Shown: positions 1 to 64,000 of the stretch, one piece after another
Layout of the letters: every line of letters begins with the position of its first letter
Position numbering within the stretch: the first letter of the stretch is position 1
From: a virus
Direction: 5' to 3' (one strand)
Virus record (IMG/VR): IMGVR_UViG_3300014202_000591
DNA length: 64,000 nucleotides
The notes under the pieces: model-generated
Told to the model about the DNA's origin: nothing
Database searches by the model: none
What the model saw: the letters and a program-made list of their open reading frames with translations, nothing else
Translations under genes and position numbers: made by a program

Positions 1-167
1 AGTGCGCTCAAAAGTTTTTCACCTGGTTCGCGTCGCCCTTTGATTACGTCGCCGAAGTATTGAGCAGAGATGCCCAGCACTTCGGCGTAGTTCTTTTGTG
101 AGCCTGCTTTTTCGGCTTCAGTTTTCAGAAGGGAAATGAGTTCATCGTGAGTGAGTTTCTTTTTCAT
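1..167 (-). CDS. Cro/CI-like helix-turn-helix regulator (truncated by window edge)
   Basis: Manual translation from the ATG at 167 gives MKKKLTHDELISLLKTEAEKAGSQKNYAEVLGISAQYFGDVIKGRREPGEKLLSAL, an XRE-type SQxxxAxxLGISxQY..DV..GRREP pattern. Not in the ORF track. Confidence 0.8.
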   Translation of the reverse strand, partial: MKKKLTHDELISLLKTEAEKAGSQKNYAEVLGISAQYFGDVIKGRREPGEKLLSA

Positions 168-172
168 AGGGG

Positions 173-204
173 TTGCATTATAAGCGGATTTGCGTATAAT
201 GCAA
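173..204. promoter_or_regulatory. Symmetric overlapping divergent sigma70-like promoters / operator
   Basis: TTGCATTATA-12 nt-TATAATGCAA is a perfect 10-bp inverted repeat. It reads TTGCAT-16 bp-TATAAT on both strands. Confidence 0.75.
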
Positions 205-337
205 GTAGCTGATACGCTTATCAGCTACGGCAGGGACACTGCCGGGTGCGCTAACGTGATTTGCTCAAGGAATGTGCGTCGCACCAAAACCCAGTACATA
301 TGGGCAATTTGCACGGACAACTTCTTTAGAAGTCAGT

Positions 338-487
338 ATTTTGCCCGTGCGTGCGTGGGATGTCCGGCTGTGCGACCCTCCACGCGCGCTCGACTTCATT
401 TTGCCCGTGCGTGCGTGGGATGTCCGACCTGCGCGACGCTGAAAGCAAGTTCGATACGATTTTGCCCGTGCGTGCGTGGGATGTCCG
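338..487 (+). CRISPR. CRISPR mini-array with 3 identical 29-bp type I-E-like repeats and 2 spacers
   Basis: Repeat ATTTTGCCCGTGCGTGCGTGGGATGTCCG at 338-366, 398-426 and 459-487. Unique spacers of 31 nt (367-397) and 32 nt (427-458). Length, central hairpin and CCG end resemble I-E repeats. No cas genes in the window. Confidence 0.85.
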
Positions 488-505
488 CAATCTTCAGATG
501 CGTGT

Positions 506-958
506 ATGAGAAAAGCCTACAAGTATAAAATCTATCCAACAACCAGTCAGACAGCAGCCCTGACCGCTCAGCTTTCCGAGTGCTGTCGGCTTTACAATGC
601 GGCACTTGCTGAGCGCATCGGCGCATACAAGATTGCCCGCAAGTCCATCACCTACTACGACCAGAAAAAGCAGGTAAAGGAGATTCGAGCGGCGGGAGAT
701 TGCAGTATTGCCAATCATCAGGTTGCCGCCGATGTGATCAAGCGCGTTGATCTGGCATTTCAGGCATTTTTCCGCCGCTGCAAGGCGGGCCACACGCCCG
801 GCTTCCCGCGCTTCCGGTCATACAAGCTTTACGACTCGCTGACGTTCACAGCCTGGAATAACGGCTGCCGATTTGTCGGACAGAAGCTTTTCATTGCTGG
901 CGCTGGCAACGTGAAAAGGCGCATTACAATGATGCCGAAAGATACTGTAGGCAGGTAG
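506..958 (+). CDS. tnpB: TnpB (IS200/IS605 OrfB)-like protein, N-terminal part only, no RuvC
   Basis: KAYKYKIYPT..Q...L......C..LYNAALAER and AFQAFFRRCKAG..PGFPRFRS match the OrfB_IS605 HTH/REC region. The ORF stops after 150 aa and no RuvC motifs follow in any frame before the next gene. Confidence 0.8.
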   Translation: MRKAYKYKIYPTTSQTAALTAQLSECCRLYNAALAERIGAYKIARKSITYYDQKKQVKEIRAAGDCSIANHQVAADVIKRVDLAFQAFFRRCKAGHTPGFPRFRSYKLYDSLTFTAWNNGCRFVGQKLFIAGAGNVKRRITMMPKDTVGR

Positions 959-1008
959 CGCCCCTGTGCGCCTTGCCTGGCGGGCGCGCGGCGGGGGAGG
1001 GGGACACT

Positions 1009-1281
1009 ATGAGCAAAGACATCATTCGCAGAATCGAAGCCCTTGAACGGCGACTGACGCCGCCGAAAGAGCCGGGCGCGACTGAAACCTTTGGCGCTCG
1101 CCTTCGCAGACTGCGCCAGAATGCCAACCTCTCACAAGGCGAGATGATTCCTGACGTTGGCATCTCGAAAGCTTACCTGAGCGACCTAGAGAACGATAAA
1201 CGGACGCCCGGCGCGGAAGTGCTGCATGGCTTGGCGCGGAAGCTGGGCGTCTCAATGGATTTTCTTTGGACAGGAGAATAG
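1009..1281 (+). CDS. XRE-family HTH transcriptional regulator
   Basis: FGARLRRLRQNANLSQGEM...GISKAYLSDLENDKRTPGAEVLHGLARKLGVSMDFL; GGAG/GGGG-rich RBS before the ATG at 1009. Confidence 0.9.
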   Translation: MSKDIIRRIEALERRLTPPKEPGATETFGARLRRLRQNANLSQGEMIPDVGISKAYLSDLENDKRTPGAEVLHGLARKLGVSMDFLWTGE

Positions 1282-1283
1282 GA

Positions 1284-1733
1284 ATGGAAATTGATAACAG
1301 CTTCAGCAATAACAGCAATCCGCCTCGCCGATTCTTTCTTGAGCGCATCAAAGACAAAACCGGCGTGAGTCGCACGGGCCGCGTTCTGGAAGGCGTCTTA
1401 TGGCAGAACGGCGAAGTGACCGTCCAATGGCGTCCGCCGATGTCAACAAGCGGCTTTTACCATTCAATGCAGGAGTTCCTGACGATTCACGTTGACTGCC
1501 ATCCGTCCTGCAATGTCGTGCGCTGGATTGACCGCGAGGCGTGGCACTGTTTCGACTGCGGCGCGGGTGGAATGGAAGGCAACTTCTGTTCGCGCTGCGG
1601 CTCGCCGTCCACTGGATTTCATCCAGCACTTGAGGGCTGGGAGCCGACAAAGCGATACGAGGCAGAGCGGGAATTGGATCAGTTGAACCGGCGGCGCAAG
1701 GGGTTGGTGGCGGCGCTTGATGGCGAGAAGTAG
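1284..1733 (+). CDS. Hypothetical phage protein with C-terminal CxxC-CxxC zinc ribbon
   Basis: F.L.R..D.TGVS.TG.V.EGV...GEVTVQW motif, seen in small phage proteins; CFDC and CSRC pairs. Confidence 0.6.
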   Translation: MEIDNSFSNNSNPPRRFFLERIKDKTGVSRTGRVLEGVLWQNGEVTVQWRPPMSTSGFYHSMQEFLTIHVDCHPSCNVVRWIDREAWHCFDCGAGGMEGNFCSRCGSPSTGFHPALEGWEPTKRYEAERELDQLNRRRKGLVAALDGEK

Positions 1734-1765
1734 CGCCCCGCGTGCGGCGGGCGGAAGGGGAATTT

Positions 1766-2113
1766 ATGACTAAGCATCACCTTAGAAAACTAGCACCGTA
1801 TAGAACCGCGCTGCGCGAACGATTCGAGGGATGGACGCGACAGCGCAAAGAACCGCTGTGGACGTGCGGCATCGTGACGGACGCTTTTTACGTGGTCACG
1901 CTTGGCGTCGGTAAATCAGCTTACGATGCGGCTGCGGTGCGGGAGAAAGTCAAAGACGCGCCAATGCCCGCAATGATCTTCGACGGGAAAATGGTTCACG
2001 TTGTGAAGGCATCTGGTGACGAATGGACGGCTGAAGCGGCAGAGGAAGACGCGAAGGAGATTGCGAGCGTGATCATCGCCGAAGAGATGGAACAAGCCAG
2101 ACGCAGGAGATGA
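1766..2113 (+). CDS. Hypothetical protein
   Basis: ORF with GGGG RBS, co-oriented in the early operon. Confidence 0.55.
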   Translation: MTKHHLRKLAPYRTALRERFEGWTRQRKEPLWTCGIVTDAFYVVTLGVGKSAYDAAAVREKVKDAPMPAMIFDGKMVHVVKASGDEWTAEAAEEDAKEIASVIIAEEMEQARRRR

Positions 2114-2156
2114 GCTAATAAATCGGAGTTTTTCTCGGCAGGAGGAAGAGAGGTTT

Positions 2157-2444
2157 ATGTTTATTCACAAACCAGACGAAGTATTGATCTATTACGACAG
2201 GCCGTTACTTTTCACGCTGAAATCGGAAGAAAGCGACAACGGCGAAGAGGTTTGGATTTGCTCGCCAATTACCGAAGAGAAGTTGAGCGACGTGAAAAGC
2301 GGCGCAGTTGACCTGCGTGAAGGCTTTCTTGGCCGCCCTTACAGCGTTGTGCGCGTGATGGCTAATGGCGATCCGGTGATTACAATTGCTGCTGAAGTGT
2401 CGGATGAATGGCTGCCAGACGTAGGGGCGAAGTTGCGTGTGTAA
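2157..2444 (+). CDS. Hypothetical protein (possible DUF6575-like)
   Basis: Strong AGAGG RBS; LIYYDRPLLFT motif recalled from DUF6575-like proteins, not verified. Confidence 0.5.
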   Translation: MFIHKPDEVLIYYDRPLLFTLKSEESDNGEEVWICSPITEEKLSDVKSGAVDLREGFLGRPYSVVRVMANGDPVITIAAEVSDEWLPDVGAKLRV

Positions 2445-3182
2445 ATCGGTCTTCCTGACGGCAAGCGCGCTCGGATGCCTGATTTTAGATGCGAGATAAC
2501 GTGCTATTATGCACGCGCATTAAGCGAGAACGGCAGGCGCTACCAACGCCCACCGTCTCTAACCAAATCGAAAGGGGTAAGCTTCCGATACCAGTCTTGA
2601 TTTTCTTTCGCAAGTCCAGCAGCTTGCGCCATCAATTCACCAACTCATCACAAGTAAGTCCGCGCGCATCACCGCTGCCGTCACGTCTCACGATGTCACT
2701 GCCGGTTATGGTCGCGGGTTCACGTTTCACTTAAAACCCGAACTGCTGATCGAGCAGTGCCTGACGTGCTTTGAAACGGCGACCAGTCGGCCTACCTTTG
2801 ATTGTCGCTGGCATCGCTTCGAGAAACGATTTATGCAAATCGTCGACGCGGAAGCGCCCACGCTGGAAAAGGCGTTGCGGAAGTTGGAGGCGGTGAGTGC
2901 ATTGGAAGAACGGAGGGCGGCGTGAAAGAAAAAGTATTCCCTCAATTGAGCGGATATAGGCCGCTACGGAGGCGCAGGACGGTCACACTTTGCCATTGGC
3001 TGGATGATCTGAATAGATGGAAGTGGCCCGCCGAAATAGCTCGCTTGACCGAGCGGCTAGAATCGGAGTCCCGCCCGCCAGGACGTGACTCGCTTCGCCC
3101 CTACGGGGCTGCGCTCGTTTCTACTATTTCCGCCGCCCCTTCGGGTTGTCTTGAAGTAGACTGGTAGCGGAGGAAGAAGACT

Positions 3183-59036: not shown

Positions 59037-62015
59037 TCAAGCCGCCACCCCTTTCGCCTTCGCTTTGAATTCCGCCAGTTTCCGCCCAATGGCATCACTG
59101 GCTTCGCCCTTTGTGATCGTTTCCGCATCGTGCGGCACACGCCATTTCTTCAACTTTGCCAATTGATCCTCCGTTGCCGGATCGCGCCGCCACTTCGCGT
59201 CCGTGCCGCCAAAAAACAATGTCTTCGCAAACCCCTCCGCCGCCGCCCGGCATTCCGCCTCGGTGGCGCAAATCGCGCGGAACTCCTGCCCATCGGTGGC
59301 AATCCAGTTGTCGTCGGCCATGGGGCGAACGGTGATGATGCGGTTGCGGATGGTGAGGGTGGAGCGGTGGTTGATGGTGGATTGCCAGGTGAAAGACGGC
59401 TTTGGCTTTGGCTGCGGCATCTCCGCCCCACTAATCAAACTCACCCGCCTCGCCTCAAACTCCGCCTCGATCCGCTCCCGCTCTTCCTGCTCCGCGAGTG
59501 CCGCCGCGCGCTCCCGCTCCCCTTCCGCTGTCAATTCAATCAGTCCCTCGCGCTGCCGGCTGGGCTTTTCCTTGCCCGCCAATGAAGCGAGGTTGACCAG
59601 CTTGTGGCGCTTCGTTACGCCAACCAAATCCATCACCAGGAAGTTCGGCTTCCGGCTCGCCGCAATCGCCGCCAGCCGCTCTTCCGCTGTTTCCAGCCCG
59701 TCAATCACGCCGGGCAGCAATCGAGTGCCGCGCCCCAGCGTTTGCAGATAGCGTGATTTGCTCGCCGTCAGCGTTCCGATCAACAGGCATTCCGTTGTCG
59801 GCGAGTCCCAGCCGGTATTCAGACAGGCGACATTGACCAGCACCTGCAATTGGCCGGATTCATAATCCGCGAGTTTCTTCCGCCGTTCGCCCTTGTCGGT
59901 TTTGCCGTCAATCGCTGCGGCGCGAATCCCGCCCGCGCGCAGGTGGTCGGCAAGTTCCTTGGCCATTTCAACGCGCGGCACGAACATGGCAGTTTTCAGA
60001 TGCCCGGCGTGCGTGCGCCATTGCTCGGTGATGGCCTCTTTCCAGTTGTCGGCGCGGCGAATGAATTCCGCCACTTCGTTCTGATCAACGTCGCCACCGC
60101 GAGAGTGGACGTTGGTGAAGTCCGCGCCTTTGAGGCTGAATTGGAGCGAAATCGGCTCACAGAGCCAGCCTTCGCGGATGCCGTCAATGAGCGACATTTC
60201 GTAGGCGATGTCATCGAAGACTTCATCGAGGCCCCGGCCATCGAGGCGAAAAGGGGTCGCGCTGAGGCCCACCACAAGGGCATCCGGCGCGGCAACGTGT
60301 TCAATGACAGTCTTGTACGCATCAATGTTTAAGTGAGCTTCATCCACGATCACCGTTTGAAATCCGCCCTTTGGCAGCATCGCCAGCCGCTTCGCCTTGC
60401 GAACTGTATGCAGGCTGGCAATGACGATCCGCGCGTTTTTCTGATTCAGCCCCGCCTTGACAATCCCCACCGGGATGCCCGGATTTTCTGCCTGAACCGC
60501 TTTCGCATTTTGAAAAACCACTTCATCAATCGGCGCGAGAAACAGCGCGCGGCCAATCGGGGCGCGGCGCTTGATCAATTGGGATGCGAGGTAGGTATTA
60601 TGAGTAACAGTGAAATCACCGAGCAGAAATAGCCTGTCGCCATCAATTTCAAATCCGTAGTATTCGCCTTCGCCAATTGGCTCAACCTTGATGCCTGTTA
60701 CAAGGTGGTTTTTTATTTGACGCCGTTTTATGGCTCGCTTGCGTGGAATCTTGGACGGGATTTCTGAGGTGTCGCCTGAGATGTAGGCGACCCAGTACAC
60801 CCCAGCCTTGCCGTTATTGCAGCAAGTCTTTTTTCTTGGCTTAACTGACGCAGCGAAGCCTAGCGACCGGGCGATGAATGCAACATCGCTTGTAAGGCGC
60901 TGTGATAACGATACGTATTCAATGCCTGACTGGTCTTGCCCGTGCAGATAGCCATCACTGTCAACTAGCCCCGCCAAAAGTGCCAGTCTGACCTCGCGGC
61001 TGTTTGTTTTATATATCTGAGGAACGTGCTTATTGCCGCTCACGCCAAGACTTCTAAGCTGATCTCCCAGTGACCCCTTGTACTCCTTACGCCGAAGCGT
61101 GGAATAGCAAGGACACCTCCCCTTACAGATTTGCTTTTTTACAATATGCCCTATCCGCGCGGCATGTTCGTGCAGATAGTCAACAATCTCACTATCGGCG
61201 GTCGTAATGTTTGAATTGTGAGAAGTGCCATCGCCAAGCCACAAGCCTAAGAAATAGGGATCAATCGGCACAGCCTGCGCAGGCCATTCAACGCCAGTCC
61301 GCCATCCTTTTGCGCAGTGCTTAAAAGTCTTGTTTTGGCTCAAGTAATCAAGAATTGAAATGTTGACGATTGAACCGGGCAGGTAGCCGGACACCTTTTT
61401 GACGAAGCCGTTTTTCGTGTTGGTTATTTTCAGTGAAAGAATATGGGCCTCGTTGACAATGTACGGATCGCCCTTAACCGGTACTACCTTGTAAAGATTG
61501 TCGCGGCCTTGAGCGGTTGAAAGCACGTTGCGCGGCTGCGAGTCCGGCCCCATCAGCACGTCGCCTGTCTGAACATCCTGCACGGCCTTTACTGTGCCAT
61601 CGAACATCAGAACCGGCGTATCTTTCCCAAGGCACTTGCCCAATCCGGTCGCCTGGGCGATGACGGGGCGCTTGATGCCGCGCGCGAATGCGGCATCAAT
61701 GGCATCGAGGGCGCGGATTTGATATGGGCGGGGGCGTTTTGCTGCGGGCGTGACATTGGCCCTGAAATCCTGTAGGCGATTGCCCTTGGCGTTGTTGCAG
61801 GCGGCGCAAAGCAGTTGCAGATTGGATAGCAGCGATGGCCCGCCCTGTGCCACGGGGTGAATGTGGTCAATCTGCATCTTCCCCGCCGCGCCGCATCGGG
61901 CGCACCGCTCACCATCACGGGCCACCAATAACGAATAGAAAGTGGTGTAGCTGTCGCGGAGTTCGGCGCGAACATCGGCGCGGGCGGAGGTGATGAGGGT
62001 GGAAACAATGCTCAA
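59037..62015 (-). CDS. SF2 (DEAH, ResIII-like) helicase with N-terminal HNH domain and an intein
   Basis: TTG start after GGAGG; CARC...IDHIHP...NLQLLCAACNNAKG; ATGLGK/T; VDEAH; GLSATPFRLDG; LNTGWDSP; QTLGRGTR. Confidence 0.92.
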   Translation of the reverse strand: MSIVSTLITSARADVRAELRDSYTTFYSLLVARDGERCARCGAAGKMQIDHIHPVAQGGPSLLSNLQLLCAACNNAKGNRLQDFRANVTPAAKRPRPYQIRALDAIDAAFARGIKRPVIAQATGLGKCLGKDTPVLMFDGTVKAVQDVQTGDVLMGPDSQPRNVLSTAQGRDNLYKVVPVKGDPYIVNEAHILSLKITNTKNGFVKKVSGYLPGSIVNISILDYLSQNKTFKHCAKGWRTGVEWPAQAVPIDPYFLGLWLGDGTSHNSNITTADSEIVDYLHEHAARIGHIVKKQICKGRCPCYSTLRRKEYKGSLGDQLRSLGVSGNKHVPQIYKTNSREVRLALLAGLVDSDGYLHGQDQSGIEYVSLSQRLTSDVAFIARSLGFAASVKPRKKTCCNNGKAGVYWVAYISGDTSEIPSKIPRKRAIKRRQIKNHLVTGIKVEPIGEGEYYGFEIDGDRLFLLGDFTVTHNTYLASQLIKRRAPIGRALFLAPIDEVVFQNAKAVQAENPGIPVGIVKAGLNQKNARIVIASLHTVRKAKRLAMLPKGGFQTVIVDEAHLNIDAYKTVIEHVAAPDALVVGLSATPFRLDGRGLDEVFDDIAYEMSLIDGIREGWLCEPISLQFSLKGADFTNVHSRGGDVDQNEVAEFIRRADNWKEAITEQWRTHAGHLKTAMFVPRVEMAKELADHLRAGGIRAAAIDGKTDKGERRKKLADYESGQLQVLVNVACLNTGWDSPTTECLLIGTLTASKSRYLQTLGRGTRLLPGVIDGLETAEERLAAIAASRKPNFLVMDLVGVTKRHKLVNLASLAGKEKPSRQREGLIELTAEGERERAAALAEQEERERIEAEFEARRVSLISGAEMPQPKPKPSFTWQSTINHRSTLTIRNRIITVRPMADDNWIATDGQEFRAICATEAECRAAAEGFAKTLFFGGTDAKWRRDPATEDQLAKLKKWRVPHDAETITKGEASDAIGRKLAEFKAKAKGVAA
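60597..61634 (-). mobile_element. Intein (346 aa) with LAGLIDADG homing endonuclease
   Basis: Starts CLGKDTPVLMFDG and ends FLLGDFTVTHN with +1 Thr; YFLGLWLGDG and LLAGLVDSDG motifs; lower GC. Confidence 0.93.
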
Positions 62016-64000
62016 GACGCGGCCTCCTGCTCGGCAATTCGCCGCGCAATCCATTCCACGGTGGGAACGCAGACCGCATTGCCCAACATCCTGTAACGTG
62101 CGCTGTCGCTGATTGGTTTGCCATCGTCGCCGAAGGCAGTCCAGCCGAACTTTGTCCGAACCTCAATCCTGAATGAATTGCCGGTTTGTGTTTTTAAGGG
62201 AATGAACCCACTTATGGCACTTACAACAGAGCAACACGAGGTTATCAATTGCTGTTCTAAGCTCGGCGCACTTGAAGGGCTTGATGTGGTGGACTTCGTA
62301 GGTCTGCTCTGAGTGGTCAAATCTTCGCTGGCATCGCTGACAAGTGGCATCATCGCGCTTCCAGATAGCCTTACAAGCGGCACGCCATTCCTTTGACTTA
62401 TGGAACATGTCCCGCTCGGATGAGATTCCGCCTTGCCATCTTGGGTTATTTGGGCCGCTGTTGAATTGATAAGCACACTCAGGCGAACAAAATCTTCTGG
62501 ACTGATAGACGGGAGACACCAGCTTGCTTTCCCCGCATTGCTGGCAAACCAGAACGACCTTTCTTGACTGCGAATTTCGACTCCGCTCGCCCCGCAAAAG
62601 ATATGCACATCGTTCTGAGCAGGTTTGCTGTCGCTTGGATAGCTTGGCCGTGTATTCAGTGCCGCAGATTTGGCACTTTGATTTTGATTGATTCTTTCGG
62701 CATTCCCAGCAGGTTTTGGCAACTTGGGACTTTGGCTTTCCGCATTTACAAGGCTCTTTAGAAAGTCTAAGCATATCTCTATTATAGCAGCATTCTCGAC
62801 TTCCGGGAATCCCTGCAATCGCTCGCACTCGGTTGGAGTGAGGCGGCGAACGCCGAACTGACCGGCAATCGTTGGCGAATTTCTGCCGGTTGCGTCCCCA
62901 TTGGTGTTTAATGTGTAGGCGATGTCTGACGATCGAACTTCGTCGTTGGCGTTGATCTGCATTGCCATTACGTAGCTTTGCTGCTTCATCCCCGCTTCGG
63001 CGGCCAGAGCTCCGGCAATTTGCCCATCGCCATTGATGTAGCGAACTTCATCGCGGGTGTTTTGGGCGAAGGCGATGGCAGTCACCTGGCCAACGTGTAG
63101 GCAGGAAGTTTTATCAGGATCAGCGCCAAGCGTGGTTTGATTGCCGCCTGCTTGCCAGTTAAAGGCAACCAAGTGTTCGCCCGGTTCCGTTCTGAAGCCG
63201 CCCGTGTTGCCGCCGCTGTTCAGTGTCGCGGCGATCGCCGGAACTAATCCGTCGGCAAACTCAAATCCGCTGTGCGCGTCGCCGTTACTTCTGAGTGTTC
63301 CAGCGATTTCCTGTTCAACGATGTCTCCGGGGAATCCGCAAGTCTGGTTAGCATTAGCTGTAAGAGTTTCGGCAGTTCGCGACCCCGCTTCTCTGCGCGG
63401 CGGAGAATCCCACGCGCTGCCGTTGGGGAGAGGAAATACTTGCTCTCCACACTCGGCTCCAATACTTCGGAGAGAATCACCTGTCTGTTCGGCTTCTGCG
63501 ATGAAATCACCCCACGGCTGAATCCAGGATGATTCTGTAAAAAGAGAGTTACTTGTCTGTCTCGCATAGTTCGTAAATCCCTGCAACGCGGTTAAAGCAG
63601 ATGACCCCGCGCTCCAAAAGGCCGGACAGGAGGTCGGTGAGAGAATGATGAGCTTTGCTATGCTCAGCATCAGTTGCGCACAGGTGAAGATTTTCGATTC
63701 TGTTATCGCGCTTGCGTCCGTTGATGTGATGCACTCGCTCATTGTCAGCAAGCACTCGTCCAAGATGTCGCTCCATAACATCTCGGTGCTCTGCTTTTCT
63801 TCGATACTTACCGTTTGCTTTTGCGATCTTGGTAATCTTGTACCCTCGAAATTCTTTAAGTCCTCCTGAAAATTGCTTCCAAGATGCGATACCAAGTCGT
63901 CTAGCTCTTTGTCTAACGACAGCGGGATCACGGCCAAGTTCTCGCGCAACGTCTGTGCTTGTCCGTCCTCTTGCATTCCGAATAACTTCATCCTCTGCTT
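62012..64000 (-). CDS. C5 DNA cytosine methyltransferase, C-terminal part (5' end outside the window), with two in-frame foreign insertions
   Basis: Motif IX VRRLTPTECERLQGFP and motif X ARYRMLGNAVCVPTVEWIARRI; repetitive TRD-like region; frame open from the window edge. Confidence 0.88.
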   Translation of the reverse strand, partial: KQRMKLFGMQEDGQAQTLRENLAVIPLSLDKELDDLVSHLGSNFQEDLKNFEGTRLPRSQKQTVSIEEKQSTEMLWSDILDECLLTMSECITSTDASAITESKIFTCAQLMLSIAKLIILSPTSCPAFWSAGSSALTALQGFTNYARQTSNSLFTESSWIQPWGDFIAEAEQTGDSLRSIGAECGEQVFPLPNGSAWDSPPRREAGSRTAETLTANANQTCGFPGDIVEQEIAGTLRSNGDAHSGFEFADGLVPAIAATLNSGGNTGGFRTEPGEHLVAFNWQAGGNQTTLGADPDKTSCLHVGQVTAIAFAQNTRDEVRYINGDGQIAGALAAEAGMKQQSYVMAMQINANDEVRSSDIAYTLNTNGDATGRNSPTIAGQFGVRRLTPTECERLQGFPEVENAAIIEICLDFLKSLVNAESQSPKLPKPAGNAERINQNQSAKSAALNTRPSYPSDSKPAQNDVHIFCGASGVEIRSQERSFWFASNAGKASWCLPSISPEDFVRLSVLINSTAAQITQDGKAESHPSGTCSISQRNGVPLVRLSGSAMMPLVSDASEDLTTQSRPTKSTTSSPSSAPSLEQQLITSCCSVVSAISGFIPLKTQTGNSFRIEVRTKFGWTAFGDDGKPISDSARYRMLGNAVCVPTVEWIARRIAEQEAAS
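62163..62774 (-). CDS. HNH endonuclease nested in the -1 frame of the C5 methyltransferase
   Basis: MLRLSKEPCKCG...; zinc fingers CQIC/CSERC and CQQC/CSPEC; GPNNPRWQGG; RDDATCQRC...EVHHIKPF...IDNLVLLCCKCHKWVH; own TGCTATAAT box upstream. Confidence 0.9.
   Translation of the reverse strand: MLRLSKEPCKCGKPKSQVAKTCWECRKNQSKSKCQICGTEYTAKLSKRQQTCSERCAYLLRGERSRNSQSRKVVLVCQQCGESKLVSPVYQSRRFCSPECAYQFNSGPNNPRWQGGISSERDMFHKSKEWRAACKAIWKRDDATCQRCQRRFDHSEQTYEVHHIKPFKCAELRTAIDNLVLLCCKCHKWVHSLKNTNRQFIQD
63549..63998 (-). CDS. Second HNH endonuclease (HNH_3 type with HTH) nested in the -1 frame; 5' end outside the window
   Basis: Manual extension gives AEDEVIRNARGRTSTDVARELGRDPAVVRQRARRLGI...AEHRDVMERHLGRVLADNERVHHINGRKRDNRIENLHLC. 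Confidence 0.88.
   Translation of the reverse strand, partial: AEDEVIRNARGRTSTDVARELGRDPAVVRQRARRLGIASWKQFSGGLKEFRGYKITKIAKANGKYRRKAEHRDVMERHLGRVLADNERVHHINGRKRDNRIENLHLCATDAEHSKAHHSLTDLLSGLLERGVICFNRVAGIYELCETDK

Follow-up and report, generated by a model that had tools for sequence, protein, structure and literature searches.

The stretch of DNA under study (hereafter the window, 64,000 nt) corresponds to nt 2942-66941 of a 68.5-kb IMG/VR provirus record, whose genes include those for a terminase, a portal protein and a capsid protein of HK97 type; the carrier is a temperate tailed phage with relatives in Acidobacteriota genomes. Close to the left end of the window lies a real, orphan, type I-E-like CRISPR mini-array of three repeats and two spacers. 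It is flanked on one side by a small cI-like gene, visible in complete form at L006:1088-1297 in another phage contig, and on the other by a truncated tnpB (tnpB'), an XRE-type HTH gene and an Acb5-family gene (Table 1).

Table 1. Features at the array locus, in window coordinates.
Feature	Position	Strand	Description
Small HTH gene, 5' part (cI-like, 69 aa in full)	3..167	-	Transcribed away from the array; HTH_3 E 0.024, below the Pfam cut-off
Promoter-like site TTGCAT-16 nt-TATAAT	173..200	+	Palindromic, with a leftward twin; read from the sequence
Perfect 10-bp palindrome GTAGCTGATA-CGCT-TATCAGCTAC	205..228	+	At the predicted transcript start
Leader, promoter to first repeat	205..337	+	133 nt, 50% G+C, structured, MFE -46.6 kcal/mol
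Repeat 1	338..366	+	29 nt, repeat search
Spacer 1	367..397	+	31 nt
Repeat 2	398..426	+	29 nt
Spacer 2	427..458	+	32 nt; 18/31 positions common to spacer 1
Repeat 3	459..487	+	29 nt
tnpB'	506..958	+	150-codon ORF, N-terminal ~140 residues of an IS605-family TnpB
XRE-type HTH gene	1009..1281	+	90 aa; strong GGAGG ribosome-binding site; Cro-like or Aca-like
Acb5-family gene	1284..1733	+	149 aa; precomputed PF26761 match

Upstream of the array, the promoter that the first-pass annotation had called near-consensus stands in part. Its -10 hexamer is a perfect TATAAT (195-200), but the -35 hexamer beyond the 16-nt spacer, TTGCAT (173-178), agrees with TTGACA at only three of six positions, and for this reason a consensus promoter scan missed the site. 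The palindrome at the predicted transcript start may act as an operator-like element or, once transcribed, as a 5' RNA hairpin. The leader, put earlier at about 130 bp, was measured at 133 nt and ends in ...TTTAGAAGTCAGT. The leader-repeat duplex reached -27.9 kcal/mol, compared with -23.6 +/- 3.1 for shuffles (z about -1.4), and no significant anti-repeat was found in the leader, where the longest complementary stretches span only 6 nt. A role of the leader as a tracrRNA is not supported.

A repeat search, with which TRF agrees, returned three direct repeats of 29 nt that are 100% identical (ATTTTGCCCGTGCGTGCGTGGGATGTCCG) and recur with periods of 60 and 61 nt, exactly as first described. On the + strand the repeat folds into a hairpin with a 6-bp stem, CCCGUG/CGUGGG, and a 4-nt loop (-4.9 kcal/mol), and folding bears out the earlier observation that two of the six pairs must be G-U. 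The reverse strand pairs over 3 bp (-2.1 kcal/mol), and the hairpin is thus a property of the + strand only. The hairpin-forming strand is the strand read from the upstream promoter and the array lies right behind this early promoter, in keeping with its earlier placement as the first element of the early operon. The hairpin core is a low-complexity, (GCGT)n-like sequence, and the folding of the whole array is at shuffle level (z -0.4). As expected of CRISPR in general, the locus has at least three near-identical, regularly spaced direct repeats; however, its spacers are not mutually unrelated, being identical at 18 of 31 positions (P about 2e-4). An Rfam scan of window 1-3000 gave no match to a CRISPR-DR family, and no match to Cas6e or Cas7e was found in the 68.5-kb record. 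The claim that the array stands without cas genes is accurate as to I-E genes in the record, but it had passed over the N-terminal TnpB fragment that begins 18 nt past the last repeat.

Downstream of tnpB', the XRE-type HTH gene and the Acb5-family gene lie within 0.8 kb of the array. The local Pfam copy did not report the Acb5 family for the gene at 1284-1733, to which the precomputed match had assigned it. Acb5 proteins are cGAMP-degrading anti-CBASS enzymes (PMC12265669), and the start of the operon looks like a counter-defence cluster. Window 959-1008, which separates the tnpB' stop from the XRE gene, is 82% G+C over its 50 nt and could form a hairpin (GCGCCC...GGGCGC); it may mark the right edge of an inserted block. 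Far from the array, on the - strand of window 59037-62054, a 1005-aa helicase (ResIII, Helicase_C) is split by an insertion of an intein-like Hint domain and LAGLIDADG homing-endonuclease domains, and it also has an HNH domain at its N-terminus.

Two other contigs, which diverge downstream, carry the module (cI-like gene through Acb5) at 99.9% identity. The near-identical phage contig L005 is without window 2272-3016 (745 nt) and L006 diverges past window position 1867; these differences are mosaic breakpoints just downstream of the module. At least three phage genomes whose downstream regions differ retain the whole array block, and because all known copies are 99.9% identical, they offer no sign of selection. 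Acb5 homologues in related phages share 69-92% protein identity and occur in varied surroundings, and the Acb5 neighbourhoods retrieved from them (L051 and L089-L093) contain neither the array nor tnpB'. DNA homology with these Acb5-sharing phages begins at the Acb5 start codon or no more than about a dozen bases from it. Given this boundary and the absence of the array-tnpB' block from the related phages, the block is taken to be a lineage-specific insertion. As to the host, one Acb5-sharing relative lies in the MAG GCA_964570175.1 (G408), whose listed relatives overlap an Acidobacteriota sample drawn around another MAG, G001, and on this ground the phage probably infects Acidobacteriota. A query with the integrase found no relative in IMG/VR, and a search of 101 genomes for the cI-like protein was negative.

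Type I-E systems have repeats of 28-29 nt, spacers of 32-33 nt and a 7-8-nt 3' repeat flank that yields the 5' handle, and a 7-nt handle combined with a stem that begins at repeat position 7 is known for the I-E array CRISPR4 of S. thermophilus (PMC3890593). The type I-E-like label given earlier agrees with what was measured in the phage: a repeat of 29 nt, spacers of 31 and 32 nt, a G+C-rich hairpin with a 6-bp stem (its two G-U pairs included) and a 4-nt loop, and a 3' flank that reads ATG.TCCG. For comparison, a set was assembled of the five among 61 Acidobacteriota genomes related to G408 that each have an I-E cas2 with an adjoining array. Their repeats, written in the direction of the cas genes, include ATTGTCCCCACGTGCGTGGGGGTGAACCG, CCGTTCCCCACGCACGTGGGGATGAACCG and GTTCTCCCCACGCGCGTGGGGATGGTCC, and their period is mostly 61 nt. 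When aligned, the phage repeat agrees with these repeats at 18-22 of 29 positions. In four of the genomes the transcribed orientation scores 8-10 and the opposite one 2-3, whereas in L095, the fifth, the orientations are nearly level (4 and 5). The type V repeats that lie beside the viral TnpB-like genes of loci L066 and L068 match the phage repeat at only 5-11 positions. From its geometry and the likeness of its stem and flank to known I-E repeats, the repeat is placed in the I-E family by architecture.

The first-pass annotation had proposed matching the repeat to host arrays, and this yielded likeness at the level of the I-E family only: no same or near-identical repeat was found beside I-E cas genes, the best cas-linked match being 22 of 29 positions. 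The searches concern collections apart from the phage's own near-identical copies. IMG/VR contains no other copy of the exact repeat, and a 20-mer of it gave only single chance matches inside genes among JGI metagenome contigs. A search of 185,579 species genomes for two copies of the hairpin stem, with any four bases allowed in the loop, recovered no same or near-identical repeat, and the 26 arrays that it returned were discarded as unrelated. Two sets of Acidobacteriota genomes (401 and 61), searched with up to three mismatches, gave one stray single match per set and no array, and no same or near-identical repeat was found in INPHARED and PLSDB. The closest repeat, with 22 of 29 positions and an identical 16-nt hairpin, lies in an Acidobacteriota MAG (L023 = L105:2780-3200 = G001:C1:494779-495199). 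This element consists of seven hairpin copies (TTTTCTCCCG[C/T]GCGTGCGTGGGG...), in four of which the 16-nt core is that of the phage repeat, and of inserts of ~30 nt, which are strongly palindromic in their own right (z -2.3 to -5.6 in five of six); it is situated ~2.2 Mb from the only Cas1 of the genome. Being an orphan with palindromic inserts and far from Cas1, it was set aside as a different kind of element and no ordinary CRISPR array. A further candidate, L029, was dropped as a cas-adjacent array, as Cas1 lies on another contig.

The likeness between the two spacers, taken in their natural register, is reached by 0.02% of shuffles and by 0.08% of random 32-mers of the window, and it peaks at the 5' end, where CTGTGCGACCCT and CTGCGCGACGCT agree at 10 of 12 positions; such homology between co-encoded spacers, strongest at the 5' end, is consistent with variants of one target. 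The first-pass annotation had held that homologous spacers would speak against the CRISPR reading. The homology was found, but it is not taken as a refutation, because published phage Cracr spacers aim at variants of one target. Both peptides read earlier from the spacers are correct, LRDAESKFDT for spacer 2 on the + strand and EVERAWRVAQ for spacer 1 on the reverse strand. A single reverse-strand frame runs open through both spacers and gives the similar peptides EVERAWRVAQ and RIELAFSVAQ; in this frame seven of 12 differences fall at third codon positions (about P 0.07 before correction for three frames). Together these features are a weak sign that the target may be a coding sequence and not a promoter. 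Neither spacer is a palindrome (z -0.9 and +1.1). Within spacer 1, CCACGCGCGC can form a duplex with the repeat's 3' arm (z -2.5, P 0.014 against shuffles), and such pairing might interfere with the hairpin of the adjacent repeat.

A search of viral and host databases, likewise proposed at the outset, found no target for either spacer. The earlier remark that the spacers have no match in the window holds across the 68.5-kb record, in which neither matches anything but itself at up to eight mismatches; a homologue of the spacer peptides was also not found in the phage's own genome. In IMG/VR no protospacer was recovered with wobble and union patterns, and INPHARED and PLSDB gave no spacer match, exact pattern matches being required in each case. 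The retrieved loci of related phages gave none either. Among 101 Acidobacteriota genomes, four spacer matches compare with two in the control, which is no excess, and in the five Acidobacteriota I-E genomes and G001, with their cas loci and promoters, the matches were noise only. Two 21/22 matches in G001, which fall in gyrA-like and leuC-like genes (by translation) at an SDLRD motif and include repeat bases, were rejected as chance.

The product of tnpB' (P0001) matches HTH_OrfB_IS605 (PF12323, E 1.6e-10), and its residues 1-140 share 50-54% identity with TnpBs of 381-387 aa; these are canonical transposon proteins, whereas identity to array-linked TnpBs is 37-42%. The ORF stops before the first RuvC motif, and no TNB domain is encoded anywhere in the record. 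Unlike the next two genes, tnpB' has no visible Shine-Dalgarno or ribosome-binding site. A close TnpB relative (P0044) lies directly behind tnpA, the normal arrangement of the IS605 family, whereas the phage ORF has the array upstream instead. Other short relatives, of 153 and 198 aa, end at differing points. The phage locus does not amount to a complete IS200/IS605 element, for which the RuvC/TNB half, the omega-RNA region, and the ends or tnpA would be expected. Judged by its sequence, tnpB' is probably a remnant, and it is most likely the inert leftover of an IS605-family element brought in along with the array. Two viral contigs in IMG/VR (L066:652-2355 and L068:3001-5025) encode relatives of this protein, TnpB-like and of 388 and 482 aa, with arrays of 7-8 repeats of 37-38 nt directly behind them; these loci are candidates for compact, phage-borne type V or TranC systems.

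Taken together, the data permit a model, tentatively favoured here, by which the orphan I-E-like mini-array is used for counter-defence of the Cracr or Racr kind, borrowing or jamming the I-E machinery of the host. This model proposes that the array would be transcribed as the extreme 5' end of the early rightward operon, that host Cas6e would cut the transcript at the repeat hairpins, and that two crRNA-like RNAs would then enter host Cascade. These RNAs could occupy Cas proteins in competition with host crRNAs, and the shared 5' (PAM-proximal) part of the spacers might guide Cascade to a conserved target that exists in two variant forms, for example a cas promoter. The setting favours a role in counter-defence: the array sits directly behind a promoter with no cas genes and with Acb5-family and HTH genes nearby. 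Three identical repeats at I-E spacing, with a hairpin only on the transcribed strand, argue in the same direction, as do the I-E family likeness of the repeat, including a precedented 7-nt 5' handle, the mutual relatedness of the spacers, which recalls published I-E Cracr arrays, and the absence of a viral protospacer from IMG/VR even with wobble and union patterns. However, no host array with the phage repeat was found in the collections searched, and hence no cognate Cascade was identified; nor did either spacer match any cas locus or promoter in the five Acidobacteriota I-E genomes. In addition, the spacers of 31-32 nt differ in length from those of 21-24 nt in tested Salmonella Cracrs, the third-codon-position differences and similar peptides give a weak hint of a coding target, the 99.9% identical copies hold no evidence of selection, and Rfam gave no CRISPR-DR match.

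An alternate scenario, possible but unlikely, would turn the array against other viruses, with host Cascade and Cas3 directed at two related competitor phages or mobile elements and the spacers representing the same site of a homologous gene in different rivals. It is established that virus-borne mini-arrays may carry one or two spacers against related viruses (PMC6858448; PMC11656645), and the full length of the present spacers fits such use. The single reverse-strand frame open in both, with seven of 12 differences at third positions, also hints at a gene as target, although the codon signal is weak even before correction for three frames. However, the repeats of published mini-arrays are those of the host, and no such host repeat was found here; protospacers were likewise absent from IMG/VR, INPHARED and the related-phage loci and did not exceed the control in the 101 Acidobacteriota genomes. 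Moreover, the array lies on the early lytic transcript and not next to the repressor gene, which would be a poor location for exclusion by a resident prophage.

Similarly doubtful is the proposal that the locus is foreign DNA, composed of the end of an I-E array and a decayed IS605 element, that recombined into the early region and has no function. The truncation of tnpB' before RuvC, the lack of a ribosome-binding site and the ordinary transposon TnpBs that are its nearest full-length relatives all suit a passenger of this kind, as does the absence of the array-tnpB' block from the related Acb5-sharing phages. The near-identity of the copies, moreover, implies that the insertion is recent. 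However, three perfectly identical repeats are unlike the decaying end of an array, and the array is oriented in agreement with the promoter and also with the one strand able to fold. Further, the block has stayed intact in the phage genomes that differ downstream of it, and a structured insert placed first in an operon would be costly if it had no use.

It is quite improbable that the array is unrelated to CRISPR and represents a tandem triplication of a 60-nt unit that works in the early leader by binding protein or through its RNA structure. The mutual relatedness of the spacers would suit such a duplication, and the pairing of spacer 1 with the repeat above shuffles and the low-complexity, (GCGT)n-like hairpin core are in accord with it; in addition, the nearest relative of the repeat, L023, alternates the same hairpin with palindromic inserts and adjoins no cas genes. 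However, repeats that are 100% alike between intervening parts that are 58% alike form the pattern of CRISPR and not of a drifting duplication. Lengths, flanks and orientation fit I-E repeats, and, unlike the L023 inserts, the spacers are not palindromic, nor does the array as a whole fold beyond shuffle level.

It is very improbable, too, that the array belongs to a TnpB-linked guide module of the TranC or a type V-like kind, either relic or working, whose TnpB/Cas12-type protein is truncated here or encoded elsewhere. The array does end 18 nt before the TnpB start codon, some viral TnpB relatives (L066 and L068) carry arrays, and TranC pairs TnpB-like proteins with short arrays, their repeats being 32-38 nt in length (bioRxiv 10.64898/2026.03.27.714800). 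However, an effector with RuvC and TNB, as TranC and type V systems possess, is present neither in tnpB' nor elsewhere in the record, where no RuvC or TNB domain occurs. The repeat is 29 nt long and of I-E architecture, compared with the 32-38 nt of TranC and the 37-38 nt of L066 and L068, and it does not pair with an anti-repeat, its pairing with the leader being no better than that of shuffles (z about -1.4). The fragment is also nearer to canonical transposon TnpBs than to array-linked ones. Hardly to be expected is a joint minimal RNA-guided module of array and RuvC-less fragment, in which a 150-aa WED/REC piece of TnpB would bind I-E-style crRNA-like RNAs from the same transcript, either as a binding protein without nuclease activity or as a decoy that counters host TnpB/Cas12 or Cascade, although, if true, it would represent a new phage re-use of half an RNA-guided nuclease.

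The borrowing or jamming of host CRISPR by a phage is a known trick, which would here occur in an unusual setting. If host Cascade processes the array, the use of orphan CRISPR RNAs (Racr, Cracr or mini-array) would extend to phages of Acidobacteriota, a major soil phylum for which, to our knowledge, there is almost no experimental phage biology. The target of the two full-length, related spacers would reveal what the phage must silence or destroy. For the reading of viral arrays at large, homology between spacers is no ground for dismissal, and a TnpB fragment beside an array is not enough to call a type V system.

Among known systems, TranC and compact type V loci share with the phage a TnpB-family gene beside a short array. 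However, the phage protein is without the whole RuvC/TNB half and has ordinary transposon TnpBs as its closest relatives, and the array has an I-E-type repeat and lacks a convincing anti-repeat; an assignment of the array to TranC or type V is therefore weak. The viral mini-arrays (Medvedeva et al. 2019, PMC6858448; PMC11656645) resemble it in having one or two spacers, in being carried by a virus and in their dependence on host Cas proteins, but their host-identical repeats and their spacers matching related viruses have no counterpart in the collections searched here. With the I-E repeats of E. coli, S. thermophilus CRISPR4 and the Acidobacteriota genomes (L095-L099) the phage repeat shares a length of 28-29 nt and a period of about 61 nt, and with that of S. 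thermophilus a G+C-rich 6-bp stem with a 4-nt loop that begins at position 7. Its 3' flank, ATG.TCCG, compares with ATGAACCG, GTGAACCG or ATGGTCC in known I-E repeats and, at 7 nt, is one base shorter than the 8 nt of E. coli and the Acidobacteriota. Unlike known I-E repeats, the phage stem has two G-U pairs; at a best identity of 22/29, it copies none of the arrays found.

Racr genes follow promoters and are grouped with anti-defence genes, and I-E examples among them are functional (Camara-Wilpert et al. 2023, PMC10651486). The phage array is comparable in that a repeat mimic lies right behind a promoter, with no cas genes and with adjoining counter-defence genes; however, Racrs are single repeats, whereas three repeats and two spacers would give rise to guide-bearing RNAs. 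Phage Cracr arrays of type I-E, to which 20 of the 30 known arrays belong, have two or three spacers each, aimed at variant forms of a single cas locus, and those tested in Salmonella have spacers of 21-24 nt (Liu et al., bioRxiv 10.1101/2024.10.29.618823). The phage array departs from them in its 31-32-nt spacers, in its three identical repeats, none of which is degenerate, and in the inferred host phylum, Acidobacteriota as against the reported Pseudomonadota, Bacillota and Actinomycetota; a CreR or cas-promoter match, too, was not found for it in the five Acidobacteriota I-E genomes and G001. It is nevertheless like Cracr in being prophage-borne and outside any CRISPR-cas locus, in its I-E-type repeats, two spacer-like sequences and nearby anti-defence genes, and in the mutual relatedness of its co-encoded spacers, as would be expected if variants of one locus were targeted.
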